A stretch of 64,000 nt of DNA, from contig CAVXSP010000001.1 of the NCBI GenBank assembly GCA_963764505.1, forward strand, positions 1,959,207 through 2,023,206, in the 5' to 3' direction. The position numbers were made by a program, and so were the translations under genes. The notes under the pieces were generated by a model that did no database searches, was not told the origin of the DNA, and saw only the letters and a list, made by a program, of their open reading frames with translations. Shown piece by piece: positions 39,656-59,218 of the stretch; the first letter of the stretch is position 1, and each line of letters starts with the position of its first letter. Origin of the DNA: an uncultured Acidobacteriota bacterium. Lineage in GTDB: Bacteria > Acidobacteriota > Vicinamibacteria > Vicinamibacterales > SCN-69-37.

Positions 39656-40452
39656 AGGTTCTCGGCAAAGGTGAACTCCGCCCGATGGAACAGCACCCAG
39701 GCCCAGACCAGCAGGAGCGGGGAGGCGACCGCCGCTACCGCGAACGCGACGGGATCGTGGAACGGGGTGCCGAACAGGGCCGTGCGATAGCCGTCGATGA
39801 TCGGGGTCATCGGGTTGAAGCGAATGATGGTCGCGAGCCGTCCGCCCATGAGCTCGACCGGATAGAGCACCGACGAGACGAACATCCAGACGGTGACGAT
39901 GAGCTCGAGCAGGTACTTGACGTCGCGGTAGAACAGGTTCGCCATCGCGAGCAGCAGTCCCACCGCCGCCGTGAAGCAGACCTGGACCGCGATCACCACC
40001 GGCAGGAAGAGGATCGACGCGGACGGCACGACGCGGTAGTAGGCCATCATTCCGACGAGGATGATCGACGCGACCGCGAAATCGACGAGGCAGACGATGA
40101 TCGCCGAGAAGGGGAAGACCTCCCGCGGGAAGTACACCTTCGTCACCAGACCCGGATTGCCCGTCAGCGACGCGACCGAGAACCTCAGCGACGAGGCGAA
40201 CAGGTTCCAGGCCGACAGGCCGCAGTAGGCGTAGAGGGGGTACGGCACCGGCGTGGCGATCGGCGCCACTCGGGTGAAGATCACCGAGAACACCACAGTG
40301 TTGATGACCGGCATGAAGACGGCCCAGCCGAAGCCCATGACCGTCTGCTTGTAGCGCACGAGGATGTCCCTCGCGGCGAACCGGTAGAGCAGTTCCCGGT
40401 ACTCCGCCTGCTCCCGGAACATCTCGCGGACGTCGTTCCAGAGCGCCGTCAT
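39652..40452 (-). CDS. wzm: ABC-2 type polysaccharide exporter permease (Wzm/TagG-like)
   Basis: Shows ARDILVRYKQTVMGFGWAVFMP and 6 TM segments. ATG at 40452 forms an ATGA overlap with the upstream stop. Confidence 0.85.
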   Translation of the reverse strand: MTALWNDVREMFREQAEYRELLYRFAARDILVRYKQTVMGFGWAVFMPVINTVVFSVIFTRVAPIATPVPYPLYAYCGLSAWNLFASSLRFSVASLTGNPGLVTKVYFPREVFPFSAIIVCLVDFAVASIILVGMMAYYRVVPSASILFLPVVIAVQVCFTAAVGLLLAMANLFYRDVKYLLELIVTVWMFVSSVLYPVELMGGRLATIIRFNPMTPIIDGYRTALFGTPFHDPVAFAVAAVASPLLLVWAWVLFHRAEFTFAENL

Positions 40453-42750: not shown

Positions 42751-45047
42751 TCAGCTCTTCAGGTCCGCCAGCGCCCGTCGCGCGGCGTCGGCGTTGGCGC
42801 CCGAGTTCTGCAGCGCCAGCGACTTCTGCAGGGCGTCGCGTGCCTTGCCGGTCTCGCTGAGCGCCGCGTAGGCGAGGCCGAGGTGGTAGCTGGTAAGTGG
42901 GATTGCTGCGGCTCCTTCGTTGACCGAGTCGAGCAGCGGGGCCACCGCCTGGGAGAACTGGCCCTTCTTGTAGAACGCCCATCCGAGCGTGTCGTTGATC
43001 TCCGGCCGGTCGGGCAGTCCGGCTTTGGCGGTCTTGGCGAGCTGCAGCGCGACGTCCAGATTGCCGCCCGTATCCATGTAGATCCCCGCCAGGTTGTTGG
43101 CGGCGACGGCGGCACGCGGATCGAGCGGCGAGCGCCTTCTCGTATCGCGCGCGGGCTTCGGGCCTGCTTGTTCTGCTCTGCAAGAGCATGCCGATGATGG
43201 TGTGCGCCGGGACGGACTTCGGCTGCTTTTCGCGACTTCGGTGAACTGCCGGATGGCGTCGTCGACCCGACGCTGCCGGATGTAGAGGCTCGCCGAGCAG
43301 CGAGTACGCCTCGAGGTTGTTCGGCGTCGGCGTCGACGGCCGGCCGCGCGAGCGCTCGGTCGAGGCAGGGATCGCCGAGCGCCGCGTACGACTTGGCCGC
43401 CAGGAGCAGGACGCGCTGCGTTTTTCGGAGACCTCCGAACGGCCTCTTCCAGCTGAGTCTCTGGCGGCGTCGGGCCGCTTGTCCTGATGTCCATCGTCAC
43501 GAGTCCCGCGATCAGCGTCGATCTGGGCCGGATTCTTCTCCAGCGCCTTCTCGAACGCGGCGCGCGCCGCGGCGCGGTTCTTCTTCAAGCAGCTCGAGCT
43601 GGCCGAGCTCGGCCTGCACGGCGAGGCAAGGTCCGGGAGGTACTTGGCCAGCAGCGCGAATGATGGGCTCGGCCTTGCGACGACTCACCGCGCATGAGGT
43701 GGATCCGCGCCAGCAGCAGGTGAGGCGCTCGACGTAGCCGTTGACCTTGAGCACCGCGGCCTTGGCGAACTGTTCGGCCTGGTCCAATGGTTGGCCGCGA
43801 AGTGCAGCTTGGCGAGCTCGAATTCGGCGATGGCCATGCGCGGATTCAGCTTGAGGGCCTGCGTGAAGGCGGCCATCGCCTCCTGCCGCTGGCCGCGCAG
43901 CACGTACATCCGGCCGAGCGCGAACTGCGTCTCTGACGACTGCGGGTTGGTTTCCGCGGCCGACCGGACCGCTGCGAATGCCTCGCTCACCTTTCCGAGT
44001 CCCAGCAGCGTCTGGGCCTTGGCCAGCAGGGCCTCCCAGTTCCTGCGGTTCCTTCGCGAGCACTCATCGATCAACTTCATGGCCGCGGCCGGATCGCCGG
44101 ATCCCAGGCCCATGCCGGCGAGCCGCAGTTTCGCGCTGGTCGCGCCTTTGACGCCGCTGGCGGCGACCGCTTCCAGGATCCGCTGCGCCTCGTCGCGCCG
44201 CTGCAGCGAGATGTAGTAGTCCGCGAGCAGCGAGCTTGCCGGTGCCGTCTGGCAGCGTCTCGGCAAGCGTCTTCAGGTACGGCTCGGCCTCTTTGGGCTG
44301 GCGAGCGCCGATGTAGAACAGCGCCAGCGCGCGGTTCGCGAGGACGTTCTTGGGGTCGAGACTCAGGGCTTCTTTCAGTTGCGCTTCGGCTTCGGAACGC
44401 CGGCCAACGGACCAGAGGTAGTTGACGAGCGCCAGTCGCGCGTCGACGGATTTCGGGTCGGTCGTCCACGGCCTTGCGGAACGCCGCTTCCGCTTCCTGC
44501 CGATCGCCGTGAACCATCTGCATCGCGCCGAGGATCGTGTAGCTCGTCGTCCGGTCGGGCTCCTCTCGAATGGCCGCCTCGACCTCGTCCAGCGCGTCGT
44601 CGAGCTTGTTCAGGCCGGCCAGGGCATTCGCGTGCAGGATCATGCGCTTCGACGTTCTTCGGATCGATCGCGAGCGCCTTCTCCGCGCGGCCGTTGGCGT
44701 CCTCGAACTGTCGCGCCAGGAGCAGCATCTGCGCGGCGCCGACTTGCGCCTCGGCGTCCTTGGGCAGCAGGTCGGCCGCCCGGACCGCTTCGCGATACGC
44801 GTTCGTCAGGTCGCCGACCTCCTGATACGCCTTCGCCAGCTTGCTTCTCGCTTCGCCGAACCGGGCGTCCGCCTGGACCGCATTCCGATACTGGATGACC
44901 GCCTCGGGGTATTTCTTCTGGGCGACGTACGCGTCGCCGCTCTTCACGAATTCGCGCTTGGCGACTTCCGGGTCCTTGCCGCACGCGGCGGCGAGCAGCA
45001 CCGCGGCCAGTGCGGCGCGTGCGGACGATCGTGATCGGTCGAAGCAT
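42751..45047 (-). pseudogene. prsT: PEP-CTERM-system TPR-repeat lipoprotein (PrsT-like), frame broken at least 11 times
   Basis: The lipoprotein signal is reconstructed across one shift (MLRPITIVRTR/AALAAVLLAAAC|GKD). TPR-type segments are spread over all three minus frames, e.g. QYRNAVQADARFGEARSKLAKAY, DPKSVDARLALVNYLWSVGRRSEAEAQLKEAL, LLADYYISLQRRDEAQ and AANNLAGIYMDTGGNLDVALQLAK. Confidence 0.7.
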
Positions 45048-45064
45048 GTCTTCCTCGTTCCTGC

Positions 45065-45712
45065 CTAAGACGGAAGATAACGGTCGAGGTACGGCAACAG
45101 GATCTGGACGAACTGCGCGGGCGTCGTGCTCGGCCTCGTCGACACCCGCCTGCGGGCCGGTGATCGGGACTGACGATGCGCACGAGCGCGGCATCGGAGC
45201 GGTTCAACCGGATCGCGTCGGTCACCATGAAGATCTTGCTCCAGTAGTCGCTCGCCACGATGCGGCCGTGGCTCTGATACCAGTAGAAGACGACCTGCCG
45301 GTCGAGCCCCTTCGACGATGAGCACCTCGTTCACGTGGATCGGATCGGCGCGACCGGGGACGGCGATCGTCGTCTGCGTGGTGCGCACCGGCTGCCAGCC
45401 GGCGCCCGGAAGGCAGTTCATCGGCGAGTGGATCGTGTCGCCCTGCCGCTGGCTCTGGTAGTAGCCGACGTACAGGCCGACGACGTCGTTCGGCGACGCG
45501 ACGTAGTAGCGGTTCAGGTAGTCATCCACGCCCAGCACGGCGAGGACGTCGCTCGTCAGCGGCGCGGCCTCGTGCCCCGACCAGTTGCCAAGCTGATTCG
45601 GGAGATGCGCGAGCGGCTCGCGCAGCGGCACGCGCTCGGGCTGCATCGCGAAGCCGATGTAGGTCGTCGTGGCGACGAAGCACGCACTCAGGAGAAGAAG
45701 GCGTCGGGTCAT
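45065..45712 (-). pseudogene. epsI: EpsI-family exosortase-associated protein, three frame breaks in the last third
   Basis: Shows MTRRLLLLSACFVATTT..., GNWSG..., YLNRYY...GLYVGYYQSQRQGDTIHSPMNCLPGAGW. It then continues in other frames: LDRQVVFYWYQSHGRIVASDYWSKIFMVTDAIRLNRSDAALVRIVSP.../...FVQILLPYLDRYLPS*. One break falls in a C4 run at 45307..45310. Confidence 0.7.
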
Positions 45713-45723
45713 TGGATCAGGGA

Positions 45724-46588
45724 TCAGGCGGCCGCCGTGCTCGTCGCTCCAGCCGCCACGCCGCGCGGGATGAACCGCTGGAGCAGCCGCGCCACGACGA
45801 ACATCATCAGAAACGCGACCATGAACACCAGCCAGCCCGAGAACTCGTGAAAGAAGCCTTCGGCGGCGGCCGGGCCGTAGTAGGGCGCCGCCAGGCCGGT
45901 GCCGGCAACCCGGAAGGCATTGGACGCAATGGCAATCGGGATCGTGGACAGCGCGATCAGCACGCGCACGAACGGCCGCCGATCGATGAAGTACCCGTAG
46001 ACGATGCCGAGCGTCAGCAGCGACACGAGCGACCGGATGCCGCTGCAGGCTTCGGCCACCTCGAGCGTCGTGTTCGCCAGGACGATCACGTTGCCTTCGC
46101 GGAGCACGGGCACGCCCGCCAGCGACAGGGTCGTTTCGCCGACGTTCGAGGCGAGCAGTTGAAGCGGAAACGCGATCTGGTTGAAGAGGATCGCCGGAAT
46201 CGGAATCATCAGGATCAGGAAGGCGAGGGGGAACACCAGAATCCGGAGCGCCCGCCAGCCCGCCACAAAGACGATGGATCCGGCCAGCACCGCCAGGATC
46301 GATGTGCGGGTCAAGAACAGCTCGGCGCCCAGCAGGCCGGCCACCAGCAGGGCCAGACCGAACACGACGATCGCCAGGCCAATCGCGGCGGGTCGGGGCT
46401 GAACTTTGGCCAGCTTGTGCCGGCGCTCCCAGACGAAATAGGCCGCGAGCGGGATGATCAGGAACCCATGCGAGTAGTTGTCGTCATGGGCCCAGTCCTC
46501 CAGCGAGCCGGACCATCACCGGCCCGTAGAGCGCCAGGAAGCTCAGCAGTGCGAGGGCCCATGCCACTCGTCGAAATCCCCACCTCAT
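45724..46588 (-). pseudogene. xrtA: Exosortase (XrtA-like), one frame break near 46500
   Basis: MRWGFRRVAWALALLSFLALYGPVMVRLA is then out of frame with DWAHDDNYSHGFLIIPLAAYFVWERR. Further motifs are EACSGIRSL and IPIAIASNAFRV. It is followed by the EpsI and PrsT-like genes. Confidence 0.75.
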
Positions 46589-46796
46589 CGCGAAGGGCAA
46601 GTAGCAAGGCACTCTCCGCGGCCGCCTCCCGTCGCCCGCGAGGCAGCAAGGAGCCTGTTTGCAGGCACTTGACGGGGATCGCGGCCATGGAACCGGTCAC
46701 CGGGGGGCCAGAAAATCACCAGAAGGGCTGACAAATATTCTCGGCTCCGGGTCCTTTTCGGGGCCTCCTCAGCATCGGGCCAAAGCTCGCGGGGTT

Positions 46797-46812
46797 TGCC
46801 GGAATTCCGGCA
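46797..46812. promoter_or_regulatory. Perfect 16-bp palindrome TGCCGGAATTCCGGCA in the divergent exosortase / acyl-module intergenic region (candidate operator or UAS)
   Basis: Read directly. It lies about 210 bp upstream of the xrtA-like start and about 220 bp upstream of the 47030 sigma-54-like motif. It shares the GGAATTCC core with the palindrome at 51332..51343. Confidence 0.35.
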
Positions 46813-47029
46813 GACAGAATGTCAGCGATCCGAGCCGGCCGAGTCCAACAGTGTGACCGAGTCGAAAAAGGTGAAATTCTCACATGGTCAAAAATGCAGC
46901 GTCAGCCGTGAACTTGAATTGGCGACGATCAATCCGAAGATGGTTCGTGCTCAGCAAGTCCATATCTTATAGGGCAGTTAGTCAGCAGCCATAAGTTTGA
47001 CATCGACGTCAGCATCCCCTGAGCGCACG

Positions 47030-47045
47030 TGGCACAGTCTTTGGG
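47030..47045 (+). promoter_or_regulatory. Weak sigma-54-type promoter candidate (TGGCAC-N5-TTGG)
   Basis: The -24 element TGGCAC is perfect and the GG-to-(G)N spacing is correct. The -12 reads TTGG instead of TTGC. It lies 55 nt upstream of the ATG at 47101. Confidence 0.25.
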
Positions 47046-47100
47046 TAAGCGGCATGCGCGCCAGCCGGGGCCCTCGCCGGAATGGCACGAGGACATCCAA

Positions 47101-47923
47101 ATGTTGAGCTTTCTTGAACGCCAAGCCGCGCTCATCGATCGGCGGCTCGTCCTCTTGGCGCCGAGATCGGCCTATACCGCGCCGTTCTTCAACCTCGAGC
47201 ACAGCTCAGAGCGACATTCGGCGCTGCTCGGCGAGGTTCAGCGACTGCGGGGCGCGATCTACGTCGGTGACGGAGCGGTCCGCGGCGATGACCTTTCTTC
47301 CGATGGCCGCCACGAGACCGCCGAGGACCGCAACAGCTGGCATTTCCTGATGTTGACTCCTGGTGGGAAGGTCAGCTCCTGCGTGTGGTATCTTGCCCAC
47401 GAAGGAGCCAGGCGTGTCGAGGAACTTCGCGTTCGCGCCTGTCCGCTCGGGCGCGATGCGGCGTGGCACGACACCTTCCGTACCGCGGTTGAAGACGAGT
47501 TGACGCGAGCCGGCCGCGACGGCCTCCGATTCGCTGAAGTCGGCGGCTGGGCCGTCTCGAGGCAGTCGCGCTGCACGTCGGAGGGTCTCTTGCTGGCGCT
47601 GGCGGCCTACAGTCTGGGCCGGCTTTTCGGGGGGCCTTGGGCCTGACCACAGCCACGGTGCGGCATTCTTCGTCGGCAATCCTGAGGCGTCTGGGGGGCT
47701 CGTATCTCCAGGCGAATGGCACCGTCGTGCCGCCTTATTACGATCCGCGGTACCAGTGCGAGATGGAGCTGCTCCGCTTCGATTCCCGAAGGCCCAATCC
47801 GAGATTCGCGCACCTCGTCGACCTGCTCAAGGAACGTTTGACCAATGTGCGTGTAGTCACGGCGCATCAGCCGGCGCGCCTTTCGTTTCGGCCATGCCAC
47901 TGGAGCCGCTGTTCGCCGCCTGA
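47101..47923 (+). pseudogene. LuxI/FeeM-like N-acyltransferase (GNAT-fold; cf. exosortase-system-associated acyltransferase), frame broken in a G6 run at 47629..47634; 3' end unresolved
   Basis: Shows LGEVQRLRGAIYVGDGAV...DGRHETAEDRNSWHFLML...LRFAEVGGWAV...LLLALAAYSLGRLFGG. It then continues out of frame as ALGLTTATVRHSSSAILRRLGG...PPYYDPRYQCEMELLRFD. Adding one G restores the frame. GAGGA lies 7 nt before the ATG. Confidence 0.5.
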
Positions 47924-47933
47924 CGGCCGCCCG

Positions 47934-49627
47934 ATGGAACCTGCGAGCCTCGCGTCCGCGATCGACGCCTGGACGGCGGTCCTGGGACCGGAGTTCGTCG
48001 TTCGCGACGCGTCCGTCCTCGAGGCGGCTTCCACGGCGACATTCGCGACGACTTCGCACGTCCAGGCGATTCTCCGGCCCGCCGATCGGGAGCAGGTGCA
48101 GGCCTGCGTGCGCGTGGCCAACCGGTTTCGGATCGCGCTCTATCCGATCAGCACGCGGCAAGAACTGGGGATACGGGTCCCGCGTGCCGGTCCGCGACGG
48201 CGTGCTGCTCGATCTCGGCCGATTGAACCGGATCGTCGACTTCAACGAGGAGCTCGGCGTACGTCACGGTCGAACCCGGTGTCACGCAGCGACAGTTGTT
48301 CAGCTTCCTGCGCGAGCAGCGCTCGCGCCTCTGGATGGACGCGACCGGCGCCAGTCCCGATTGCAGCATCATCGGCAACACGCTCGAGCGCGGATTCGGC
48401 CACACGCCAATGGGCGACCACTGCGGCAACGCCTGCGGCCTGGAGGTCGTGCTCCCGACGGGCGAGTGCATCGAGACGGGATTTGGTCGGTTTCCGGGCT
48501 CGAGGGCGGGCCCGGTGAGTCGATCGGGCGTGGGGCCTTCGCTCGACGGTCTCTTCTCGCAGTCGAATCTTGGCATCGTCACGCGGATGACCGTGTGGCT
48601 CATGCCGGCCCCTGAGCACTTTCAGGCGTTCTTCTTCATGTGCCGCGACGAGGACGGGCTCGCGGCCCTCGTCGACGCGCTGAGGCCGCTGCGGCTGGAC
48701 GGAACGCTACGCAGCGTGATGCATGTGGGCAACGACTACAAGGTCTTGGCGGCGGCAGGGCAGTTCCCATGGGACGACACGCTCGATCAGGTCCGCCGAT
48801 CGGCCGGACGAGATGGCGCAAAGGCGGCAGAAGTTGGGCATCGGCTGCTGGAATGGGTCCGGAGGCTTGTACGGCACGCAGGGCCCAGGTGCGCGAAGCT
48901 CGGCGTCGCGTGCGGCGCGCCCTGGCCGGCAAAGTGGATCGGCTGCAGTTCGTCGACGACAGGCTGCTCGGCGTCATGGCTCGGTTCGCGAAGCCGTTTC
49001 GTGCTCTGACGGGATGGGACGTGAGTCGTATCGTCCGGGTGATCGAACCGGTCTTCAACCTGCTGAAGGGCGTGCCCACCGATGCGCCGATGGCAAGCGC
49101 CTACTGGCGCAAGAGGACCGCTCCTCCGGACGCGCCCGATCCCGATCGCGACCGGTGTGGGCTGCTATGGTGCAGCCCCGTCCTGCCGAAGACCGGCGCC
49201 GACCTCCGGGAGGTGACGGAGCTGGCCGTCCGCGTCGTGCTCGAATACGACTTCGAACCGCAGATTTCAGTCTCGCTGGCGACGGAGCGCAGCATCATCT
49301 GCATCATCACGATTGCCTACGACCGCGATCTTCGCTGGCGAGGACCGGCGTGCGCAGGCATGTTACGAGACGCTCACGCGCGCTCTCCTCGCACGTGGGT
49401 ATCCGCCCTATCGCGTGAATGTCGGCGCCATGTCGCTCGTTGGAGGCGACGGCACCTATGCGGACACCCTCAGGGCCATCAAGTCCGCCCTCGATCCGAA
49501 CGGGATCCTCGCCCCCGGCCGGTACGAGCCTGCACCGGTAGCCAGTCGCCGCCCGCACGCGAGACGTCGCCTGACCCGCCCGATCCCGTTCCCGATGGCG
49601 CGGCCGGCGAGTATCATACGGCCATGA
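47934..49627 (+). pseudogene. FAD-binding (PCMH/FAD_binding_4-type) oxidoreductase, at least 5 frame breaks
   Basis: The pieces are ILRPADREQVQACVRVANRFRIALYPIS / GKNWGYGSRVPVRDGVLLDLGRLNRIVDFNEELG / VTVEPGVTQRQLFSFLRE...GLFSQSNLGIVTRMTVWLMP / ...KLGIGCWNGSGGLYGTQ / ...LRAIKSALDPNGILAPGRY. They are spread over three frames. The stop at 49625..49627 forms an ATGA with the next gene. Confidence 0.7.
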
Positions 49628-50178
49628 ACCAGGCACTCCCAATCGCCGTCGTCCTCGTGCTGAGTCTGGCGCCTCTGGCGAACGCACAGACGGCAGTGGT
49701 GCGACCGGGCGCAACCGTCGCGTACATCAGCGGGCAGCGCATCTCGGCAGAGTCGGTGGCCGGCAGGGAGGCCCAGAGCCGGCTGGCCAGCCTGCGCCAG
49801 CAGAAGACCGCTGATCTGCAGGACAAACGACGCGCGCTCGACGCCACGCGGCAGAAGCTGGTCGGCTCGGCCGAAGGCGAAGAGCGGACGCAACTGGAGC
49901 GCCAGGAGCAGCAGGAGCAGCAGGACCTGGAGCGGGCGGCCCAGCAGGCGCAGGTCGAGCTGCAGAACCTCCAGCGCCAGATTGTCGTGGATCTTCAGCC
50001 GCAGGTGCGGTCCGCCCTGGACGACCTGCTGAAGGGCACCGATGTCCAGGTCGTGTTGCAGTTCGAGACCTCGATCGTCTGGGCGGCCCAGGGCCTCGAC
50101 CTGACCTCGGCCGTGATCGAGCGCATGGACGCGAAGACCGCGGGAAGCGGGAAACCATCCTGCAGACTCCAAGGGTGA
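49624..50178 (+). CDS. OmpH/Skp-like periplasmic chaperone
   Basis: The signal peptide is MNQALPIAVVLVLSLAPLANA|Q. A long Gln/Glu/Arg-rich coiled-coil core is followed by DVQVVLQ...VWAAQGLDLTSAVIERMD. Confidence 0.7.
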   Translation: MNQALPIAVVLVLSLAPLANAQTAVVRPGATVAYISGQRISAESVAGREAQSRLASLRQQKTADLQDKRRALDATRQKLVGSAEGEERTQLERQEQQEQQDLERAAQQAQVELQNLQRQIVVDLQPQVRSALDDLLKGTDVQVVLQFETSIVWAAQGLDLTSAVIERMDAKTAGSGKPSCRLQG

Positions 50179-50181
50179 GCG

Positions 50182-50448
50182 ATGAGCCCGATCAAGGACG
50201 CGCTCCGGGAGTTCATCCTCGCGAACGCGCTGCCCGGCGAGTCGCCGGAGAACCTCCGTGATACGACGCCGCTCCAATCGAGCGGGATCCTCGATTCCCT
50301 CGCTGTCCTGGCACTCGCGACGTTCATCAAGGAGCGCTTTGGGGTCGAGCTGGACGTCTACGAGACCGGCATCGAGCAGTTCGATCGGATCGAGGACATC
50401 GCGGGCCTGATCGCAAGAAAGCACGCCAGCGCGGTAGGTTCGGCGTAG
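50182..50448 (+). CDS. Acyl carrier protein
   Basis: Encodes 88 aa. The phosphopantetheine attachment motif is SGILDSLAVLAL (DSL). Confidence 0.8.
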   Translation: MSPIKDALREFILANALPGESPENLRDTTPLQSSGILDSLAVLALATFIKERFGVELDVYETGIEQFDRIEDIAGLIARKHASAVGSA

Positions 50449-50459
50449 CAGAGAGAGCC

Positions 50460-51286
50460 ATGCCGGCGACACGCCCGATGGACGGCGAGCCACTCGACTA
50501 TGCCGAGCGCTGGCTGCTCGACAGTCTGCGGGTCATCAGGCCCTCATTCGTCGCCTACCAGACATCGGTCGACATGACGGCCGCGTTGAGCCAGCTCGAC
50601 GAGCTGCGCCGCCAGAGGAGTGGCGGCGACGACGACGCACCAGCTCGTGCGGGCGGCGGCCCGGGCGCTGGCGGCCAATCCGGCCATCCACCAGATGATT
50701 GCCGGCAGCCGGCGGTACCGTCCCGAACCGGGTGGACATCGGGCTGTCGATCACCGGGGAGACGTTCGTGGCGCCTGTGCTGGTGATCGAGGGCGCGAAC
50801 GAAAAGAGCCTCGCCGAGCTGGCGGCCGAGACGGCCCGTCGCGTGCCGGAGGTGCGCGAAGCCGACCGGCTCAAGCTGCGGGCATTGAGAAAATGGGGCT
50901 GGCTCGTGCCCTCTGGAGTCCTGCGCCGGGCCATCATGCGGTCCCTGTTCGGGAAGGTCGGGTTCCAGCGCCAGGCCGCCGGCACATTCCAGGTCTCGAC
51001 CGTGCCGGTCGAGTCTGCCGCCACGTCGGTGTTCGTCGCTTCCGGCGTCCTCGTCGGTGGCCTGGTCTCATCTCGCGTCGTGCCGGTTGGCGGCCAGCCG
51101 GCCGTCAGGCCAACCATGACGATCACGCTCTCTGGGGATCATGGAGTCTGGGACGGGCGGGCCGCGTCCCGCCTTCTGGCGGCGGTCAAGGCAGAGCTGG
51201 AGCACCCGGAATTCGAACCTCAGGCGGCGCCGGTGGCCCCGCCAGAACACGGGAAGGTTCCCGCTCTCCCCAAGGGTTATCAATAG
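50460..51286 (+). pseudogene. Stand-alone 2-oxoacid dehydrogenase E2-type (CAT-fold) acyltransferase domain protein, two frame breaks (about 50625 and 50725)
   Basis: Shows ...VDMTAALSQLDELRRQR / AATTTHQLVRAAARALAANPAIHQMI / VDIGLSITGETFVAPVLVIEGANEKSL...ITLSGDHGVWDGRAASRLL. The DHxxxDG catalytic motif is present. There is no lipoyl domain. Confidence 0.7.
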
Positions 51287-51331
51287 TCTTCGTCGCCAAC
51301 GACTTCTCCGGCCCTCACCCCTCGCAACTCT

Positions 51332-51343
51332 CTGGAATTCCAG
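51332..51343. promoter_or_regulatory. Perfect 12-bp palindrome CTGGAATTCCAG just upstream of the sigma-54-type promoter
   Basis: Read directly. It lies 22 bp upstream of the TGG of the -24 element and has the same GGAATTCC core as 46797..46812. Confidence 0.3.
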
Positions 51344-51364
51344 CCTTTCCGGCAAAAGCACTTA

Positions 51365-51380
51365 TGGCCCCGCGTTTGCA
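51365..51380 (+). promoter_or_regulatory. Sigma-54 (-24/-12) promoter candidate for the PEP-CTERM protein gene
   Basis: Reads TGGCCC-cgcgt-TTGCA. GG and GC have the canonical 10-nt separation, and TTGCA matches the consensus TTGCW. It lies 76 nt upstream of the ATG at 51456. Confidence 0.5.
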
Positions 51381-51455
51381 AACCTGTCGGTCCGCGCGGC
51401 TTGTGTGTCCATGGTCGGACACTCAGGAAGCGTCCTTGGGGATGCGGAGGCAGAA

Positions 51456-52426
51456 ATGAAACGTGTTTTCTTCTTGGCAATTGGTTTGGCGGCGGTTCTG
51501 GGGTGGGCGAGGCCCGCTTCGGCGGACCCGATTGCGTTTGATATCAACGGCACGACTGCGGGCGGGGCTACCATGGCAAACAGCTTCGACTGGCTGCCGG
51601 GCAACTCGATGGTGGTTGAAACCCTGGTCGGAGCCCCGGTCACGCTCCTATACCAGGCGAACCTCAACTCTGTGGTGGGTTCCCCGAGCATCCTGAACGA
51701 CACGACGGGTGGTTTCGATTCGATCACTGCCGTCGCGAGCTTCACGGCCATTCAAACCGGCCCGGGCACATTCTCGGTCCTACCTGGCGGGACGTTCGCA
51801 CTCTATGCCGGGACGTCGGCCGCCCCCGATCTGGCTGGCGGCACGGCATTCTCGAACGAAAACCTCATCTTGACGGGAACGGCGACTGGGACTGGCTCCT
51901 TCAGCCAGATCCTCGATTTTGCCGGTACGATCCCTCGAACCCCTGCGCGCTGACCGTCCTCGGTTTCAAGGTCTGTGACTTGGATCAGACGTCCGCTCCG
52001 GCCCCCCCGACCAACGATTGGGCTGGATATTTCACGTTCTTCGGGGGCGGCGGGTTCAGCAACCTCCAGGTACAGGTCCAGACGTGGGATCCGACCTACT
52101 TCACCAATCTTTCGAGTTTCCTGAATCCGATTTTGACCATCACGAGCGGCTCGAACAACGTTCCCTTCTCACAGGTGGATCCGACCGCCCTGTTCTGGAC
52201 TGGCCAGGCTGGTGTGACGAGCATCTGCGGCCCGGGCCAGACGGCCGGCGTGAACTGCATCAATGGCACGGGCAGTAACATCATGGCAGAATCGGACGCC
52301 AGCACGGTGTTCCGAGTCACTGCATCCCCGGTTCCGGAGCCGGCGACATTGACGCTGCTGGGTCTGGGACTCGCCGGCTCGGCAGCGGCACGTCGGCGTC
52401 AGATGCGGAAGGCGAAGAAGCAGTAA
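51456..52426 (+). pseudogene. PEP-CTERM sorting-signal protein (predicted exosortase substrate), one frame break near 51925
   Basis: GGAGG lies 5 nt before the ATG. The signal peptide is MKRVFFLAIGLAAVLGWARPASA|DP. The C-terminus is VPEPATLTLLGLGLAGSAAARRRQMRKAKKQ* (PEP motif + TM + basic tail). The two halves are in different frames (..ILDFAGT / YDPSNPCALTVLGFKVCDLDQ..). Confidence 0.8.
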
Positions 52427-52451
52427 GTTACACCCTCCCCAAGGGCAGCCG

Positions 52452-52483
52452 AAGCGGGGGCCACCAGTGGCCCCCGCTTTTTT
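52452..52483 (+). terminator. Rho-independent terminator after the PEP-CTERM gene
   Basis: An 11-12 bp GC stem (agcgggggcca...tggcccccgct) is followed by TTTTTT. Confidence 0.75.
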
Positions 52484-53697
52484 ATTCCCCGCCCACCGTC
52501 GCGACCATTGCGCCAAAACGCTTGGCGGCATCGTATCGACGGTGCGACGCAGCCAGACGCCGGGCATGTTCGTGGTATCTCGTCGTCCCCAGCATCTTCT
52601 CGACCATCGGCCGCACGCGGGAAACCGTCAAGCCCCTGGCCCGCATCGCCTCTCCCGCCCCGGCCAGGCGTACCGCCTCCATGTTGAGGTGCTGGTCCAT
52701 GTTGTTGCTGACCAGCCCCAGCACGGGTATCCCCGCGGCGAGCGCCTGGTAGACCGATGGACTCCCTCCGTTACAGATCACGAGGCTGGCACGGCCAGCG
52801 GCTTCGATGCCCGGCAGGAAGTCTGCCACGTGTGCGTTGGCAGGAACTCGGTCGAGCTTGACTCTGCCGGCCGTCGCGGCGATGACAGTAATGGGCAGGG
52901 CGGAAAGGGCGTCCAGCGCGACGCCCAGGAAGTCCTCCTCGCCCGAACTGCCCGGTGTGACATAGACGATCGCTCGATCGTCCGGGAGCGCATCCCACCA
53001 GGACGGCTCGGAGACGACGGGCGACCAGAGCACCGCGCCGATGTAATGATGCGTTGAAGGCAGGTCCTCGATGGGCGCCAGGTCGGGAATGTCAGCGTAG
53101 GCGGTGTAGTCGCCGAACGTATACATCGTTCGGATGTCCCAGCCGATTCCCGGCAGCCGGTGCTCCCGCAGCACGGCGTTGAGCGGACGGGTGTGGGCGG
53201 CAAACCCGACAGGTCGAAGCAGCCCGAAGAGCGCCCACGCCAGCCTGGCTCCAACGACACCCGCGAGCGGGTAGTCGTATTCCGGAAACCGGAACGTCTG
53301 CCGCCCGTAGGGGCTCCAGTAGGCATTCGCAACCGCGATGTGCGGAACACCGGCCAGGCGCGCGCTGGCCGCCAGAGAAATGCGAAAGTCTCCAACGAGG
53401 AGGTCGGGACCGACTCGCGCGATGGTGGCGAGATTCCTCCTTGACGTAGCCTCGGAGCGTGTCGATGTCATGCATCGGCAGCCCACGACCGAGTCGCCGG
53501 AGGAAGAGTTCACTCGGCAGTGACCGGATGGGGTGGAAGGTGAACGGAAGGTCGCCGAGCAGCCGGTTGTACCGAGGGTCCCAGGCAGCGTGGACCTCGT
53601 ACGTCTCCGGGTCGAGGGTCCGCGCGAGGACGTTCGCCCGGGCGACGTGAGCCAACGTGACGGCTTCGGCGATGAACAGGATGCGGCGGCGAGCCAT
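52482..53697 (-). pseudogene. GT1 (MGT/UDP-glycosyltransferase-type) glycosyltransferase, one frame break near 53433
   Basis: The N-terminal MARRRILFIAEAVTLAHVARANVLA...RGYVKEE is in one frame. LATIARVGPDLLVGDF...VYVTPGSSG...ICNGGSPSVYQALAAGIPVLG is in another. Confidence 0.7.
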
Positions 53698-53843
53698 GAG
53701 GTCAGATCGGCTTTACGACTGTCTCAGGTCGAGACAGCGACGGCGAAAAAGTCCCACGCCGTGCTGGTTGGGCGTCATTCGACGAAGTTCCGGGGTCGTC
53801 CGTTGTCTGAAGACGGATCATTCTGGCGCCGATAATAGGCCGG

Positions 53844-55070
53844 ATGCGGGTCCAGACCGTTGCCGCCCCCCCTGTCGCTCCGACCGCCTCACGTGAGAGG
53901 AGGCCGGCCGGAGCACCGCCCAGCGTGCCTAAGCTGCACGCGCTGACCGGCATGCGCTTCCTGGCGGCCGCCTACGTCGCCTTCCACCATTTTGCGCTTC
54001 TCAGCGGCGTCTATCCGAAGACGCCGTCGATCAACCTGCTGCTCGGATTGGGCTACATCAGCGTAAACTTTTTCTTCATCCTGTCGGGCTTCGTTCTCGC
54101 GTGGAACTACATCGACGACGCCGGGAGCTTCCGCGTCAGTCGGCGGACCTTCTGGATCGCCCGGTTCGCGAGACTGTATCCAGCCTATGCGTTGGCGCTC
54201 CTGTTTGCGCTTCCGAAGTTTGTCGAGCTCGCAATGCGTGGAGGCGCTCCCGCCGCCGGCTCGCCGGCGCTCGACAACCCCTGGCTGGTCGCCGGAACGG
54301 CCGTGACAACGCCGCTCCTTGTCCAGGATTGGCTTGGGCTCCTCGCTTGGAACGCTGTGGGATGGTCGCTATCCGTCGAAGCGTTCTTCTACTTGACGTT
54401 CCCATATATCGCTCCCCGAATCGGCGGCGTGACAGAACGGCGGCTCGGCGTACTCGCGCTCCTCTGCTGGCTGCTCCCGTTGGGACTCGCTCTTCTTGTG
54501 TTCGGAAGTCAGCCGCACGGAAGCAATGCGGCGTCCTGGTACGAGGTATCGACCTTCACGGAAGGATTCTTCTACGCCTCTCCGCTCGTGCACTGGCCCG
54601 AGTTCGTCCTCGGTGTGATCGTCGGACGAATGTTCAGACGCCGGTACGTGGAAGGCAGGGTATCGAACTGGAAGCCGGCCTGGGACTACGTCGCCGCCGG
54701 TGCGACGGTGCTCCTGCTGGGCCTGTTGAGTGTTCTTCCAGGCCAGATCTTCATTAGTCTCATGCCACCTGTTTTCGCCTGGCTCATCTTCTCAGTGGCC
54801 CACTCGTCTTCGAAGCTGGCTGGGCTCCTTTCCTCTCCCCCGATGATCCTGCTGGGGGACGCAAGCTATTCGGTGTACCTGTTTCACGCAACGGCCATTT
54901 ACGCGCTCCTCGGCACGGCTGCAATCCTCGGCAGCGGCCGGCTCCTGTCGTGGCCGGCCTTCTTCTCGTGTTTCGGTTTGATCGTCCTGTTCACCATCGC
55001 CGTGTACAAGTGGGTCGAACAACCCGCCCGACGCTGGATCCGTCTTCGGCTGTCGCCTGAGACGGTTTGA
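53844..55070 (+). CDS. Acyltransferase family 3 (membrane O-acyltransferase)
   Basis: Shows LTGMRFLAAAYVAFHH and about 10 TM segments, and the ORF is uninterrupted. Confidence 0.8.
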   Translation: MRVQTVAAPPVAPTASRERRPAGAPPSVPKLHALTGMRFLAAAYVAFHHFALLSGVYPKTPSINLLLGLGYISVNFFFILSGFVLAWNYIDDAGSFRVSRRTFWIARFARLYPAYALALLFALPKFVELAMRGGAPAAGSPALDNPWLVAGTAVTTPLLVQDWLGLLAWNAVGWSLSVEAFFYLTFPYIAPRIGGVTERRLGVLALLCWLLPLGLALLVFGSQPHGSNAASWYEVSTFTEGFFYASPLVHWPEFVLGVIVGRMFRRRYVEGRVSNWKPAWDYVAAGATVLLLGLLSVLPGQIFISLMPPVFAWLIFSVAHSSSKLAGLLSSPPMILLGDASYSVYLFHATAIYALLGTAAILGSGRLLSWPAFFSCFGLIVLFTIAVYKWVEQPARRWIRLRLSPETV

Positions 55071-55119
55071 TTTGCGGCGTGGAGGCATGCGAACCCCGAG
55101 TTTCCGCTAGTCTACGCTG

Positions 55120-56901
55120 GTGAGCGATGGTTCCCTGCCCGGTCCGGATGCCGGAATTCGGCGCGAAGGCGCGCCGCGTCGATGCTGGCTCGGGCCCGTC
55201 CTGGCGGCTCTTGCCATCGCGCTCGCGGTCATCGCGCATGTGAATACGCTTGGGCATCCCTTCGTTTGGGACGATGCGCAAGAGGTCCAGGCGAACACGT
55301 CGATCGAGGATCTCTCCCGTCCGCTCACGATCGCCCGTCATTACCCCACACGGCCGGTCGTCAACTTCTCCTATGCGCTGGACTACCGGATCTGGGGTGG
55401 TCGTGACGAGTTTGGATTTCACCTCACCAACCTTGTGCTCCATTTGATCGACGTCGGGTTGCTCTTCGGCTTCACATATGTGGTCGTGAACGACCTCGGA
55501 CGAGCCCGCGGGCGGCCGAACGAGGTCGCTGCGGACGCCACCGCGTTCGGGGCCTCCGCGCTGCTCGCCGTGCATCCCATGATGACGGAGGCCGTCGGCT
55601 ATGTGTCCTCCAGGTCCGAACTGCTCTGCGGCGCGTTCATGCTGGCTGGTCTTCTCTGTTTCAGAGAGTCGTTCGACGCCCAGCTCGCGCGCGCCGGCCA
55701 AACCTCCAATGCGGACCCGCCTGGCTCGCCAGGAACTGCCCGCCGGCCAGGGAGTGGTCAATGGCGTTGGCTGGCCGGCGGATTGCTCTGTTTCGGTCTT
55801 GCTCTCGGGAGCAAGGAAATCGCGGCAATGCTGCCGTTCGTCCTGGTTCTGTACGATGTGCTGCTTCATTCTGACCCTCCGCCGCTGAAGCGTTCGCGAT
55901 TCTGGCGTCTCCACCTGCCGCTCATGACGCTCGTGGCGGTCGGTGGGATTGGACGGGTCTGGGTGTTTCTCGCGATCGAGCACCCGTCGGCAGGACGGGC
56001 GGCGGGCCACGTGGTCCTGGCGCAGGCGCACACCATGGTTCGGTACCTGGCGTTGTTCCTCTTCCCGGCGCAACAGACGATCGTCCCCGTGGTCTCTCCG
56101 ATTCTGTCGCTGAGGGACGCCCGGGTGTTCGAGGGTCTGGCGGGCCTGACGCTCGCCCTCATTGCGGTGATTGTGACAAGAAGACGAGCGCCGCTCGCGT
56201 CGTTCGGCCTGGCGTTCTTCTTCCTCCTGCTCGTCCCGTCGTCCGCGCTGAAGGTGCTCAGCGAGTTTGGACAGATGATGGCCGAGCACCGCACCTATGT
56301 CGCAAGCTTCGGACTCTTCATGGCAGCGGGCACGGGACTCTCCAGTCTCGTGGGCTTCACGGGGCAAACCCGCCCCGGTCGCCGACGCGCGGCGCTTTCG
56401 GCGGCTGCGTTCGCGGCCGTGCTCGTCGCTCCTGACGGCGCTGTCCATCTCGCGCAATCGGGTCTGGGCCGATCCGGTCACCCTGTGGACGGATGCCGTC
56501 GACAAGGCGCCGCAGACGTGGCTCCCGCTACAGGGACTTGCGGAGGCGACCGGCAGGCGGGCGAGTGCCAGGCGGCCATGGAGCCGTACCGGCATGCGAT
56601 CGAGCTCTTGCCAGGGAAGGCGGAATCGTATCTGGGCCTAGCCTGGTGCCTTTTGGAACTGAGGCGTGTCCCGGAGGCCGCCGAGACACTCCGCCTCGGG
56701 ATGACGCGCGCGCCCGACAACGCGCAAATCCCGCTCCAACTGGCCGTCATCGAAGAGCGTTACTTCCGCGACCCGACGGAGGCGTTGCGCCTCTGTCAGG
56801 GGGCCCTGGCACTGGCGCCAGATCTGACAGGACTGGCCCAGGAGTGTGTGCGGACGGAATCAGCAGGCACTCTCGAACTGGACGCCGATAACAGACCATG
56901 A
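55120..56901 (+). pseudogene. Polytopic membrane protein with C-terminal TPR repeats (TMTC/PMT_2-like); internal about 120-nt segment out of frame (compensating indel pair about 56430 / 56550)
   Basis: The ORF stays open. Residues encoded by about 56430..56550 read as low-complexity sequence in frame. The +1 frame there gives LLTALSISRNRVWADPVTLWTDAVDKAPQTWLPLQGLAEA, which is the expected TM-to-TPR linker. GTG start. Confidence 0.6.
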
Positions 56902-56922
56902 CGCCGACACAAGCGGGAAATC

Positions 56923-57689
56923 ATGCCGAAGGATGACGCGTTCTTCCACATCGGCGACGTCTTCGCCAAGGAAGTCAATCGCAACTACCTGTACTTCGTC
57001 TTGGAGCTGAATGTCGCGGCGCTCGATCGGCACCGGGTGGCCGCACGTCAGGCCGGCATCGCGCCGCCGAGTTACACGGCGTTCGCCGTCCATGCGATCG
57101 GCAACGCCCTCCGCGAGCACCCGGATCTCAATTGCATGATTTGCGAGATGCCTTTTTCCAGGGGGTTGAGACCCTGGACGACATCACGGCAACCGTGGCG
57201 GTCGAGCGCGAGGTCGACGGAGTCGACATGGTCTTGGCACTCCCGATTCGTCATGTCGACCAGAAGTCTCTGGCTGAAATTCATGCCGAGCTGAAAGCCA
57301 TGACGGAGAACGAGGTGACGGCGCGGGCCGAGGTCCGTCAGTTGCTCGCCTTGAATACCCTTGCGCGATATTCTCCCCTGCTGGCCGGCCTGGTGACGAA
57401 GTTGCCGCGTCTGTCCAAGGACATGTGGATGAAATATCGGAACGGCTCGTTCGTCGTGACCTCTCCAGGAAAGTACGGCGGCGCTGACGTGATTATTCCG
57501 ACGTGGCCCTGGCCCCTCACGTTCGCGTTCGGTTCAATCAAACCCCGGCCGGTGGTCGAGGACAGTGTGGTCGTGGCCAGAAACACGATGCGAGGGACGC
57601 TCGCCGTCGATCGTCGACTGGCGAACGGCGCACCGCTCGCGAGGTTCGCCGAACGCGTTCGTGTTCTGCTCGAAGGCGAGGGAACCTGA
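56923..57689 (+). pseudogene. Second stand-alone E2-type (CAT-fold) acyltransferase-like protein with a degenerate catalytic motif; frame break in the T5 run 57153..57157
   Basis: Shows ...YTAFAVHAIGNALREHPDLNCMICEMPF / FQGVETLDDITATVAVERE...LALPIRHVDQKSLAEI... The catalytic position reads VDRRLANGAP instead of DHxxxDG. Adding one T restores MPFFQGVE. Confidence 0.65.
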
Positions 57690-57763
57690 CGATCGTCGGA
57701 ATGCACCAGCCGGCTGGTATGATGAGCCGCTCTTCCAGACCGCTCCTGAATGGAGGTCGGACC

Positions 57764-58241
57764 ATGATGCGTAGCGTTCGCAAAGGTGCTGCGACGGCCG
57801 GGCTCGCGGCATTGTGCCTGTTCCTGAACACGCCTGCGGCGCGGGCGCTGCAGCAGACTCTGACGGTCTTCACCGCCTCGGGGTCAATAGTCTCTCAGGA
57901 GTTCTGTTCGCCGACGGAGGTCTGCCAGGTCGCGCTCATTTCAGGGCGGGCTACGCAGTTCGGCGCCTTTGCCGGTGTCTTGTCCGAACGGGTGGACCTC
58001 CAAACCGGTACCTACACCGGGACGGGTAAGTTCACGTTCAGCGGCGGGAGCACGATCAGCACCGAGTACCGAGGGCCAGGTGGTCTCGACGCCGTCCGGG
58101 GCGGCAGTCTTTTCCGAACAGCACCAGATCGTCGGAGGGACAGGCCGGTTTGCGGAGGCAACCGGACAATTGGCAGTGGCCGGTCTGGCGGATGCGACCG
58201 GAAAGGTCTCCGTTATCGGCGTCGGCCGACTCAGTTGGTGA
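57764..58241 (+). pseudogene. Small secreted protein of unknown function, one frame break near 58070
   Basis: GGAGG lies 7 nt before the ATG. The signal peptide is MMRSVRKGAATAGLAALCLFLNTPAARA|LQ. The second half (QVVSTPSGAAVFSEQHQIVGGTGRFAEATGQLAVAG...) is in another frame. Confidence 0.45.
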
Positions 58242-58245
58242 TCCG

Positions 58246-58678: not shown

Positions 58679-58702
58679 CGTTGAGGGTTTCCGCCTTCAA
58701 GG

Positions 58703-59189: not shown

Positions 59190-59218
59190 ATTATGGTGAG
59201 TCCCCCGTTATGGTGAGT
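59189..59218. repeat. Left terminal inverted repeat of the RIT element
   Basis: gaTTATGGTGAGtcccccgTTATGGTGAGt is the perfect reverse complement of 62646..62675. Confidence 0.9.

Follow-up and report, generated by a model that had tools for sequence, protein, structure and literature searches.

A candidate fee/hyellamide-like gene cluster divergent from exosortase A in an uncultured acidobacterium

Introduction

What do five tightly packed genes make when they stand back to back with an exosortase? The question is raised by a 64,000-nucleotide stretch of the genome of an uncultured Acidobacteriota bacterium of the Vicinamibacterales (assembly GCA_963764505.1, contig CAVXSP010000001.1, positions 1,959,207 to 2,023,206), which in its entirety is called the window here. 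In it five genes, G1 to G5, diverge from a gene for exosortase A (XrtA) and end shortly before the gene of a PEP-CTERM sorting substrate. A first-pass annotation had read the set as an undescribed acylation pathway tied to exosortase sorting: a LuxI/FeeM-like acyltransferase, a flavin adenine dinucleotide (FAD) oxidase, a Skp-like chaperone, an acyl carrier protein (ACP) and an E2-type acyltransferase, which might together make an N-acyl small molecule or decorate the exopolysaccharide (EPS) or the sorted protein.

The genes and the tie to sorting hold up in our analysis, and the likely chemistry changes. We put at about even the chance that the region is a lipid or natural-product cluster resembling the fee and hyellamide clusters, with G1 and G2 as its core and a fatty-acylated, oxidised tyrosine-type compound as its product. 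The fee, chondrochloren and hyellamide pathways already pair an N-acyl-tyrosine synthase with a VAO-type oxidative decarboxylase, and an association of exosortases with N-acyl amino acid synthases has been on record since 2011. What is new is an acyltransferase family, invisible to Pfam and NCBIfam, whose near-constant partner is a 4-phenol oxidase and which is usually accompanied by one family of PEP-CTERM proteins. Some of the related loci also carry an unusual trio of adenylation enzyme, carrier protein and E2/CAT-fold transferase, reminiscent of a miniature nonribosomal peptide synthetase (NRPS).

Results

Five genes and a probable phenol-oxidising flavoprotein

Three-frame translation and tblastn with intact orthologues agree on five co-directional genes on the + strand, each starting where the first-pass annotation had placed it:

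G1, 47101..47923, + strand: N-acyl amino acid synthase-like acyltransferase, probable LuxI/FeeM-type GNAT fold, unannotated family; about 274 amino acids (aa) once repaired
G2, 47934..49627, + strand: flavoprotein assigned to the 4-phenol-oxidising subgroup of the VAO/PCMH family; about 560 aa once repaired
G3, 49624..50178, + strand: OmpH/Skp-like periplasmic chaperone with a signal peptide; intact
G4, 50182..50448, + strand: 88-aa phosphopantetheine carrier protein with a DSL serine; intact
G5, 50460..51286, + strand: stand-alone E2/CAT-fold acyltransferase, a 2-oxoacid_dh catalytic domain without lipoyl or PSBD domain

Successive genes are spaced by at most 10-11 nt, and G3 overlaps G2 through an ATGA. 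The distances to the neighbours also agree with those first described, 513 bp separating the G1 start from the xrtA-like start at 46588 and 170 bp lying between G5 and the PEP-CTERM gene start at 51456.

The clue to the chemistry lies in G2, which matches Pfam FAD_binding_4 and FAD-oxidase_C; its orthologue in the related locus L007 scores 97.9 bits to FAD_binding_4. In a phmmer search of the Protein Data Bank (PDB), the L007 orthologue retrieved the vanillyl-alcohol dehydrogenase VAD (8S7x) at 1e-81, the p-cresol methylhydroxylase PCMH at 2e-78, eugenol oxidase (EUGO) at 1e-63 and the vanillyl-alcohol oxidase VAO at 1e-55, and the next tier followed with D-lactate dehydrogenase at 1e-14 and other VAO-family members at 1e-14 or weaker. 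The phenolate-binding residues Tyr91 and Tyr468-Arg469 (VAD numbering) are invariant in an alignment of VAD with 26 members of the G2 family, the window copy among them; the first is the Tyr of a WGYG motif, and the pair is the YR of YPPYR. At the position of the flavin-linking His387 all 26 sequences have Leu or Ile, which leaves them without the residue for a covalent FAD link, and the N5-contacting Asp150/Pro151 of VAD are replaced by Gly-Ala/Ser/Thr. A covalent flavin link is not strictly defining for the subgroup, since nsVAO is a natural non-covalent member of the 4-phenol VAO/PCMH group (PMC7617285). By these sequence features G2 is best classed as a VAO/PCMH flavoprotein of the 4-phenol-oxidising subgroup, probably holding its FAD non-covalently. 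The earlier placement among FAD_binding_4 oxidoreductases is thus right at the level of the family, and the name 'FAD oxidase' is too broad.

To the same subgroup belong FeeG and CndG, which oxidatively decarboxylate N-acylated tyrosine by way of a p-quinone methide (PMC11350588; PMC8762209); the clade of FeeG, CndG and HyeB has no PDB entry (PMC11350588). A 4-phenol-oxidising G2 suggests a phenolic product of the tyrosine type, like those of the fee, chondrochloren and hyellamide pathways, rather than the loosely defined acylation of EPS or of a sorted protein that had been proposed.

An acyltransferase fold outside the curated families

G1 cannot be classified by profile searches. The window protein and its L007 orthologue have no Pfam or NCBIfam match at E<=1 and none of significance to Autoind_synth. 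TIGR03694, the model of exosortase-associated acyltransferases, likewise finds neither of the two at E<=1 and touches 3 of 30 relatives at E of about 0.07. When 30 G1 homologues were compared with 18,950 NCBIfam models at E<=10, three families appeared, all faintly: two TraI models of acyl-homoserine-lactone (AHL) synthases, and TIGR03694. The TraI-type model NF052393 matched 5 of the 30, its best E of 0.011 falling below significance. A profile of the G1 family found no match among PDB sequences even at E<=10, and hhalign aligned it with LasI in a topologically sensible way at a probability of 3.9%, which we do not use as evidence of homology.

The family itself is well conserved. A word-indexed search returned 1717 homologous proteins of about 60% identity, all lacking a Pfam domain and a name, and a HMMER profile run against 1.84 billion representatives recovered 810 clusters at 50% identity. 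The best 150 of these 810 clusters gave no link between the family and annotated LuxI proteins or N-acyl amino acid synthases.

Structure prediction gives a firmer placement. An AlphaFold2 model of G1 built with 30 homologues reached a predicted local distance difference test score (pLDDT) of 90.3 and a predicted template modelling (TM) score, pTM, of 0.87. Its best Foldseek matches in the PDB were the AHL synthases BjaI (5W8A, 3.7e-06), RpaI (6WN0), TofI (3P2H), LasI (1RO5), EsaI and MesI, together with the N-acyl amino acid synthase FeeM (2G0B, 2e-05). These top matches range from E 4e-6 to 1e-4 with target-normalised TM scores of 0.6-0.68, and generic GNATs are interleaved among them. The closest fold of the modelled G1 is probably the LuxI/FeeM-type GNAT fold, probable rather than exclusive because other GNATs rank closely behind. 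The first reading of G1 as a LuxI/FeeM-fold protein is sustained by the predicted structure, and the profiles of Autoind_synth and TIGR03694 give it no significant match; the modelled protein is LuxI/FeeM-like in fold and a member of neither curated family (Autoind_synth/TraI, TIGR03694). That G1 is a synthase of N-acyl amino acids we infer only from this fold and from its partner genes.

The same structural matches raise the possibility that the product is a signal and not a structural lipid. G1 would then be a coenzyme A (CoA)- or ACP-dependent LuxI-like synthase of an autoinducer, of the aryl-acyl homoserine-lactone or the N-acyl amino acid type, that regulates EPS and exosortase expression, and G2 would tailor a 4-hydroxyphenyl group, for example from 4-hydroxyphenylpropionyl to p-coumaroyl. 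The top structural matches BjaI and RpaI are CoA-dependent AHL synthases, RpaI being the p-coumaroyl-homoserine-lactone synthase; the faint NCBIfam matches of the G1 relatives are mainly to TraI-type AHL synthases; and the cluster diverges from the XrtA operon. We nevertheless regard a signal as quite unlikely. G1 has no significant match to Autoind_synth, and the partners met in related loci (GT1 glycosyltransferase, membrane desaturase, MFS exporter, and carrier protein plus adenylation enzyme and E2-like transferase) fit a decorated lipid better. Tandem G1 paralogues are common, as they are in N-acyl-tyrosine clusters, and the Pfam gene tables of six annotated relatives hold no LuxR-family domain, although no search was aimed at regulators.

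A conserved pair and a variable remainder

A scan of GTDB representative genomes yielded 44 loci. Nearly all lie in metagenome-assembled genomes of Acidobacteriota, from Vicinamibacterales, Bryobacterales/Solibacteraceae and Terriglobia, and the genes of the window have their closest relatives in such genomes of Vicinamibacterales and other Acidobacteriota. Looking up six encoding contigs, two of them already in the set, added four loci for a total of 48 and supplied Pfam-annotated gene tables. With the GTDB scan and the best 150 of the 810 clusters as the basis, the G1 family occurs almost exclusively in Acidobacteriota metagenome-assembled genomes. The contigs of L004, L045, L006 and L015 are titled as metagenome-assembled genomes of 'uncultured Bifidobacterium sp.', 'Gemmatimonadaceae' or 'Burkholderiales', probably through mis-binning or mislabelling.

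Of the 43 loci with 2 kb or more of downstream sequence, 40 have G2 directly after G1, and this adjacency is kept across acidobacterial orders. Wider co-occurrence was scored by tblastn over 10-kb flanks in those 31 unique loci that extend 5 kb or more to each side:

G2: 29 of 31 loci
GT1 glycosyltransferase: 16 of 31, within 10 kb of G1
E2-like transferase (G5): 9 of 31
Carrier protein (G4): 8 of 31
Membrane fatty-acid desaturase: 8 of 31
Exosortase: 8 of 31
NRPS-type adenylation enzyme: 7 of 31
EpsI: 6 of 31
Skp-like protein (G3): 1 of 31

Only G1 and G2 form a near-fixed pair, and the five genes are no fixed cassette. The first-pass annotation had staked its proposal on two points, that G1 belongs to the LuxI/FeeM/GNAT fold and that the five genes keep company; the fold was upheld, and the co-occurrence of all five was not, the Skp-like gene, the carrier protein and the E2-like transferase being found in 1, 8 and 9 of the 31 loci.

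Among the related loci only L049 repeats the exact order of all five genes. It has G1, G2, OmpH, carrier protein and E2 arranged as in the window, at 40-69% protein identity and likewise divergent from XrtA/EpsI. That the order is shared at such modest identity speaks for selection on gene order. G1 often has tandem or nearby paralogues, with two or three copies in L009, L017, L021, L024, L027, L030, L035 and L039; they recall the multiple nasY genes of stieleriacine clusters (PMC12479983).

In the relatives the carrier protein and the E2-like gene usually flank an adenylation enzyme. That of L007 scores 372 bits against the amino-acid adenylation model (317), has LgrA, a prolyl-carrier ligase and DltA as its best PDB matches, and contains an FDLS motif.

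Carrier protein and transferase

Three of the genes had been identified correctly from the start. G3 matches Pfam OmpH at 2.8e-19 and 70.2 bits, against a cut-off of 32.4 bits, and begins with the signal peptide MNQALPIAVVLVLSLAPLANAQ; its sole orthologue among the related loci, 40% identical and in the same position, is in L049. G4 passes the PP-binding cut-off narrowly (22.1 bits for 20.8) with the DSL serine in GILDSLAVL, as expected of the carrier first described. G5 matches Pfam 2-oxoacid_dh over the catalytic domain only, at 36.3 to 68.7 bits for a cut-off of 23, and has its active-site motif intact as DHGVWDG, of which the form DH[GA]xWD[GA] is kept in 9 orthologues. G5 begins 11 nt past G4, is about 250-275 aa long and stays under 50 bits with every E2 equivalog model, for cut-offs above 370. 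Without lipoyl and subunit-binding domains, and with scores this far below the equivalog cut-offs, the protein is E2-like, not an E2.

The carrier has its own affinities. Its best NCBIfam model is NF052616 (ACP_for_OlsHI), at 83.7 bits for the window copy and 85.4 bits for that of L007, both under the 130-bit cut-off; AmcB and DltC follow faintly. As judged by these profiles G4 appears closer to aminoacyl/DltC-type and OlsHI-type carriers than to the ACP of fatty acid synthase, and its orthologues flank an NRPS-type adenylation-domain gene in L007, L043, L047 and L050. The ornithine-lipid OlsH/OlsI pathway was considered and dropped, since G4 stays under the cut-off and no OlsH (GH3) or OlsI-type gene was seen either in the window or at the related loci.

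A more general analogue of the ornithine lipids deserves a separate hearing. The cluster might make an acyloxyacyl membrane aminolipid in which G1 acts like OlsB, G5 carries out the second (O-acyl) transfer with G4 as dedicated ACP, and the phenol oxidase and glycosyltransferase work on the head group. Such a two-acyltransferase layout is that of OlsB/OlsA, the best NCBIfam match of G4 is the OlsHI carrier, and the N-acyltransferases of aminolipids have been analysed together with LasI, EsaI and FeeM (review PMC11631085). Several features speak the other way: the sub-threshold score of G4; the CAT/E2 fold of G5, which is unlike the known PlsC-type or alpha/beta-hydrolase O-acyltransferases (PMC11631085); the lack of G4 and G5 in about 70% of G1-G2 loci; and the adenylation enzyme paired with G4 in relatives, which is of the amino-acid and not the fatty-acid type. 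We judge an aminolipid of this kind improbable.

Broken reading frames

Three of the five reading frames are broken. Nine frameshifts fall within the 4.2 kb of the cluster: two in G1 (in a G-run at about 47634-47640, and at about 47865-47895), five in G2 (near 48160, 48258, 48790, 48890 and 49333) and two in G5 (near 50615 and 50724). The genes for XrtA, the neighbouring TPR protein, EpsI, the PEP-CTERM protein and the GT1 glycosyltransferase are frameshifted as well. A codon-position hidden Markov model (HMM) run over the window shows about 17 frame breaks crowded into 42.7-53.7 kb, and the remaining 53 kb consist mainly of uninterrupted coding segments of 1-3.6 kb. One break lies in a G6 run and the rest lie outside long homopolymers.

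It is possible that there is no working system here, and that the region is a decaying pseudogene remnant whose five genes represent two or three unrelated modules that happen to adjoin. The density of breaks, nine in five genes and about 17 in 42.7-53.7 kb beside a mostly intact 53 kb, would suit such decay, as would the phage-type integrase genes 8 kb downstream and the differing module content of other genomes. The nature of the breaks does not. Once frame-corrected, G1, G2 and G5 can be aligned over their full length with intact orthologues, each segment being 52-78% identical, without in-frame stops or deletions. For G2, the high-scoring segment pairs with the intact L007 orthologue run through six alternating frames, in fragments 51-86% identical, and for G5 they run through three; the corrected G1 alignment confirms the ...QPxFAA end. 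Breaks that consist of indels alone, with no in-frame stops, favour a locally poor long-read consensus over true decay, being typical of consensus error in a poorly covered or strain-variable island. Moreover, the G1-G2 adjacency is kept across orders, and L049 preserves the five-gene order at only 40-69% identity. The frame breaks are more likely local assembly errors in a strain-variable island than true decay, as far as the aligned sequences can tell, and we consider a dead or accidental locus unlikely.

Exosortase and PEP-CTERM partners

The cluster is bordered on both sides by genes of the exosortase system:

Exosortase A (XrtA), 45724..46588, - strand: divergent from G1; one frameshift near 46510
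EpsI-family protein, 45065..45712, - strand: downstream of xrtA; 39% identical over 226 aa to the EpsI of L007 by tblastn, PF11984 being annotated on orthologues
xrtA-G1 divergent intergenic region, 46589..47100, no strand: 512 bp between these coordinates; no Rfam family found
PEP-CTERM sorting substrate gene, 51456..52426, + strand: PEP-CTERM motif at 2.2e-08; one frameshift at about 51950

XrtA scores 212.3 bits with TIGR03109 (cut-off 208 bits) on its frame-intact part, 45724-46515, and is 66% identical to the exosortase of L007. Both promoters are presumably located in the intergenic region. Divergence of the G1 cluster from XrtA/EpsI is seen in the window, L001, L007, L049 and L050, and in L011 and L043 too the XrtA/EpsI genes are no more than 10 kb away.

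PEP-CTERM genes are more constant. A motif scan found a PEP-CTERM open reading frame (ORF) in 38 of the 48 loci, frequently right after G2, and 28 of these proteins belong to one homologous family, which we call PEPx. Its members are about 250-300 aa long and have four invariant Cys and no known domain except the sorting tail (examples are L023:12942-13736, L036:12597-13454, L007:16324-17262 and L049:15046-16011). PEPx spans Vicinamibacterales and Bryobacterales and includes loci without an exosortase within 10 kb. An AlphaFold2 model of PEPx was moderate (pLDDT 78.7), and Foldseek found no PDB match for it at E<0.2; the weaker hits do not bear interpretation. We rejected the PEP-CTERM protein of the window as a member of PEPx, because the sorting tail alone matches.

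The cluster is genetically tied to PEP-CTERM/XrtA sorting. This much of the original proposal is borne out, by the 38 of 48 loci and by the divergence from XrtA in several Vicinamibacterales; the proposed pathway itself is of a kind already known, fee/hyellamide-like. Nor does it hold that exosortase-linked acyltransferases have no known product: the association of N-acyl amino acid synthases with exosortases was described in 2011 (Craig et al. 2011, as cited in later papers), and long-chain N-acyl amino acids are what those enzymes produce. The G1 family is a second LuxI/FeeM-fold lineage associated with PEP-CTERM proteins, without detectable sequence similarity to the first (TIGR03694).

Does the product then end up on the polysaccharide or on the sorted protein? 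The first-pass annotation had raised this, with G1, G5 or both acylating amines or hydroxyls of EPS or PEP-CTERM proteins from G4, and the Skp-like protein escorting the product across the periplasm. PEP-CTERM genes are constantly near and XrtA is frequently so, G4 and G5 form a carrier and a CAT-fold transferase with no assigned acceptor, and knockout of an exosortase-type N-acyl amino acid synthase in Methylomonas abolishes a polysaccharide phenotype. To our knowledge, however, the characterised LuxI/FeeM-fold enzymes all act on small amines. In addition, G1, G2, G4 and G5 have no signal peptides, which suggests that they act in the cytoplasm; the Skp-like gene is confined to 1 of 31 related loci; and the near-obligate 4-phenol oxidase would be left unexplained. 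Acylation of EPS or of sorted proteins is, in our estimation, very unlikely.

It is tempting to speculate in another direction. Archaeosortase and rhombosortase attach their substrates to amine-bearing lipids. By analogy, the product of the cluster could be the lipid partner still missing for exosortase A: a glycosylated, perhaps also aminoacylated lipid derived from tyrosine, onto which XrtA would transfer cleaved PEP-CTERM proteins, PEPx above all. An aminoacyl group delivered by the adenylation enzyme, the carrier protein and the E2-like transferase would supply the free amine, in parallel with the lipids of the other two sortases. We offer this as a long shot.

Flanking genes and base composition

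Two further genes downstream bear on possible tailoring:

GT1-family glycosyltransferase (UDPGT/EryCIII-like, MGT-type), 52482..53697, - strand: Pfam EryCIII-like_C, Glyco_tran_28_C and UDPGT; frameshifted
Acyl_transf_3 membrane acyltransferase, 53844..55070, + strand: Pfam Acyl_transf_3 at 3.6e-22; intact

The GT1 gene product is likely a tailoring enzyme of the same cluster. A role in sugar O-acylation is possible for the Acyl_transf_3 enzyme, whose membership of the cluster is uncertain; no orthologue of it was found among the related loci.

Upstream on the minus strand XrtA and EpsI are followed by a large TPR protein and, past it, by an EPS locus, which encodes a Wzm/Wzt transporter, glycosyltransferases and an O-antigen-ligase-like protein of the exosortase-A type. 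Beside the TPR gene lies a 766-aa fusion of a GFO_IDH_MocA oxidoreductase with an NAD-dependent epimerase/dehydratase (40449-42749, - strand), and a similar 747-aa fusion protein is encoded among the EPS genes adjoining G1 in L047. Downstream, the PEP-CTERM, GT1 and Acyl_transf_3 genes give way to a TPR protein and to phage-type integrase domains. The latter belong to a 753-aa ORF at 59325-61586, 8 kb downstream of the cluster, with two Phage_integrase stretches and an N-terminal SAM-like domain; it may be two tandem integrase genes read as one ORF. Rfam (gathering thresholds) and tRNA scans of the entire window gave no match.

The G+C content of the window, which is part of a 3.9-Mb contig, is about 70% and falls from 0.70-0.73 to 0.63-0.68 past about 44 kb (44000-64000). 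The codon-position HMM labels G1 (46505-47947) and the PEP-CTERM gene wholly as 'non-coding', that is, as atypical in codon usage for the genome. The drop in G+C and the atypical codon usage may reflect horizontally acquired DNA.

Discussion

We favour, at even odds, a fee/hyellamide-like cluster built on G1 and G2, for which the following sequence of steps can be proposed. G1 would take a fatty acyl group from a thioester, either acyl-ACP or acyl-CoA, and attach it to an amino group, the most likely acceptor being tyrosine or a closely related 4-hydroxyphenyl amine. G2 would bind the phenolate and take a hydride from the benzylic carbon, forming a p-quinone methide. If the substrate is N-acyl-tyrosine, loss of CO2 from the quinone methide would give an N-acyl-4-hydroxystyrylamine (an eneamide), as with FeeG and CndG; otherwise a dehydro- or beta-hydroxy-tyrosine could result. 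The phenol would then probably be decorated by the GT1 enzyme, and perhaps by the Acyl_transf_3 enzyme, as in hyellamide.

G4 and G5 would add an accessory, thioester-dependent transfer step, for which an aminoacyl group is likelier than a fatty acyl group. In the relatives the NRPS-type adenylation enzyme beside G4, with its Asp235-type FDLS motif, presumably loads G4, probably with an amino acid, and the E2/CAT-fold G5 would pass the G4-borne group to an acceptor. G3 would be an occasional periplasmic chaperone. None of the rival explanations accounts for the near-obligate phenol oxidase as well as an N-acyl-tyrosine pathway does.

Several observations weigh against this proposal. G1 has no detectable sequence homology to any characterised N-acyl amino acid synthase, no product has been observed, and the amine substrate of G1 is deduced from the partner enzyme alone. 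In G2 the Asp/Glu-Leu pair typical of oxidases is missing at flavin N5, as is the covalent His, and G2 may be a dehydrogenase with another partner or substrate; we liken it to FeeG, CndG and HyeB through the shared 4-phenol subgroup and not through sequence comparison with those three. After G1, L043 (10001-13546) has the genes for carrier protein, adenylation enzyme and E2, and G2 is lacking within 10 kb, so that G2 is not indispensable and the carrier module can partner G1 without a phenol oxidase. The adenylation and desaturase genes of the relatives were not found by tblastn anywhere in the 64-kb window, and its PEP-CTERM protein resembles the PEPx profile in the tail only. Finally, with nine frameshifts in five genes, the pathway could be dead in this organism.

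Should the proposed chemistry prove true, the cluster would offer the first product-level handle on a widespread lipid of soil acidobacteria, and its acyltransferase, oxidase and PEP-CTERM protein would make a compact three-gene system for relating N-acyl amino acid lipids to exosortase sorting. About 800 protein clusters now called 'hypothetical' would become annotatable. The importance would be much higher if the product were the lipid partner of exosortase.

How, then, does the cluster compare with systems already described? The exosortase-associated acyltransferases of TIGR03694 share its fold class and its genomic association with PEP-CTERM proteins and exosortases, but the G1 family goes unmatched by that model, is small (810 clusters) and has a near-obligate phenol-oxidase partner. 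The carrier module recalls the D-alanylation system DltA/DltC, in that G4 of the relatives adjoins a DltA/NRPS-like adenylation enzyme with the FDLS Asp, and G5 would be the transferase. A comparable aminoacyl-transfer trio, AlmE/AlmF/AlmG, adds glycine to lipid A. In both cases the transferase differs, being of the E2/CAT fold here and not MBOAT or LPLAT, and the adenylation gene is absent from the window.

The pathways to N-acyl-dehydrotyrosines (tyrazolone TyzA-C, the stieleriacines, thalassotalic and kyonggic acids) likewise couple an N-acyl-tyrosine synthase to an O2-dependent side-chain enzyme and feature tandem synthases and a fatty-acid desaturase; the stieleriacine cluster even contains a PEP-CTERM gene. 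Desaturation there is assigned to a nitroreductase-family TyzC-like enzyme with a ThiF-like protein (PMC12479983), whereas here a VAO/PCMH flavoenzyme is present and neither of those genes was seen.

Closer still is the hyellamide (hye) cluster of Hyella patelloides, which brings together an N-acyltransferase, a homologue of FeeG, a glycosyltransferase for the phenol and an acetyltransferase (PMC11959600). Its four functions, N-acyltransferase, FeeG/CndG-type oxidative decarboxylase, phenol glycosyltransferase and O-acyltransferase, have candidate counterparts in G1, G2, the GT1 enzyme and the Acyl_transf_3 enzyme of the window. The protein families differ at two of these steps: the N-acyltransferase HyeC belongs to the SGNH/GDSL family and G1 has a LuxI/FeeM fold, and the acetyltransferase HyeG is LpxA-like where the window has Acyl_transf_3. 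The hye cluster comes from another phylum, and no exosortase or PEP-CTERM context has been reported for it.

The fee cluster, from soil environmental DNA, comprises the synthase FeeM, a dedicated ACP, an acid-activating enzyme and the flavin oxidase FeeG (Brady, Chao and Clardy 2002; Van Wagoner and Clardy 2006; PMC11959600). The present cluster departs from it in that no similarity of sequence is detectable between G1 and synthases of the FeeM or TIGR03694 type, and in the additional E2/CAT-fold transferase, GT1 enzyme, desaturase, Skp-like protein, PEP-CTERM partner and adjacency to XrtA. What the two have in common is the core: a FeeM-fold N-acyltransferase adjoining a 4-phenol VAO/PCMH flavoenzyme, a dedicated carrier, an adenylating enzyme (here in the relatives), an origin in uncultured soil bacteria, and a predicted chemistry in which N-acyl-tyrosine formation is followed by a quinone methide.

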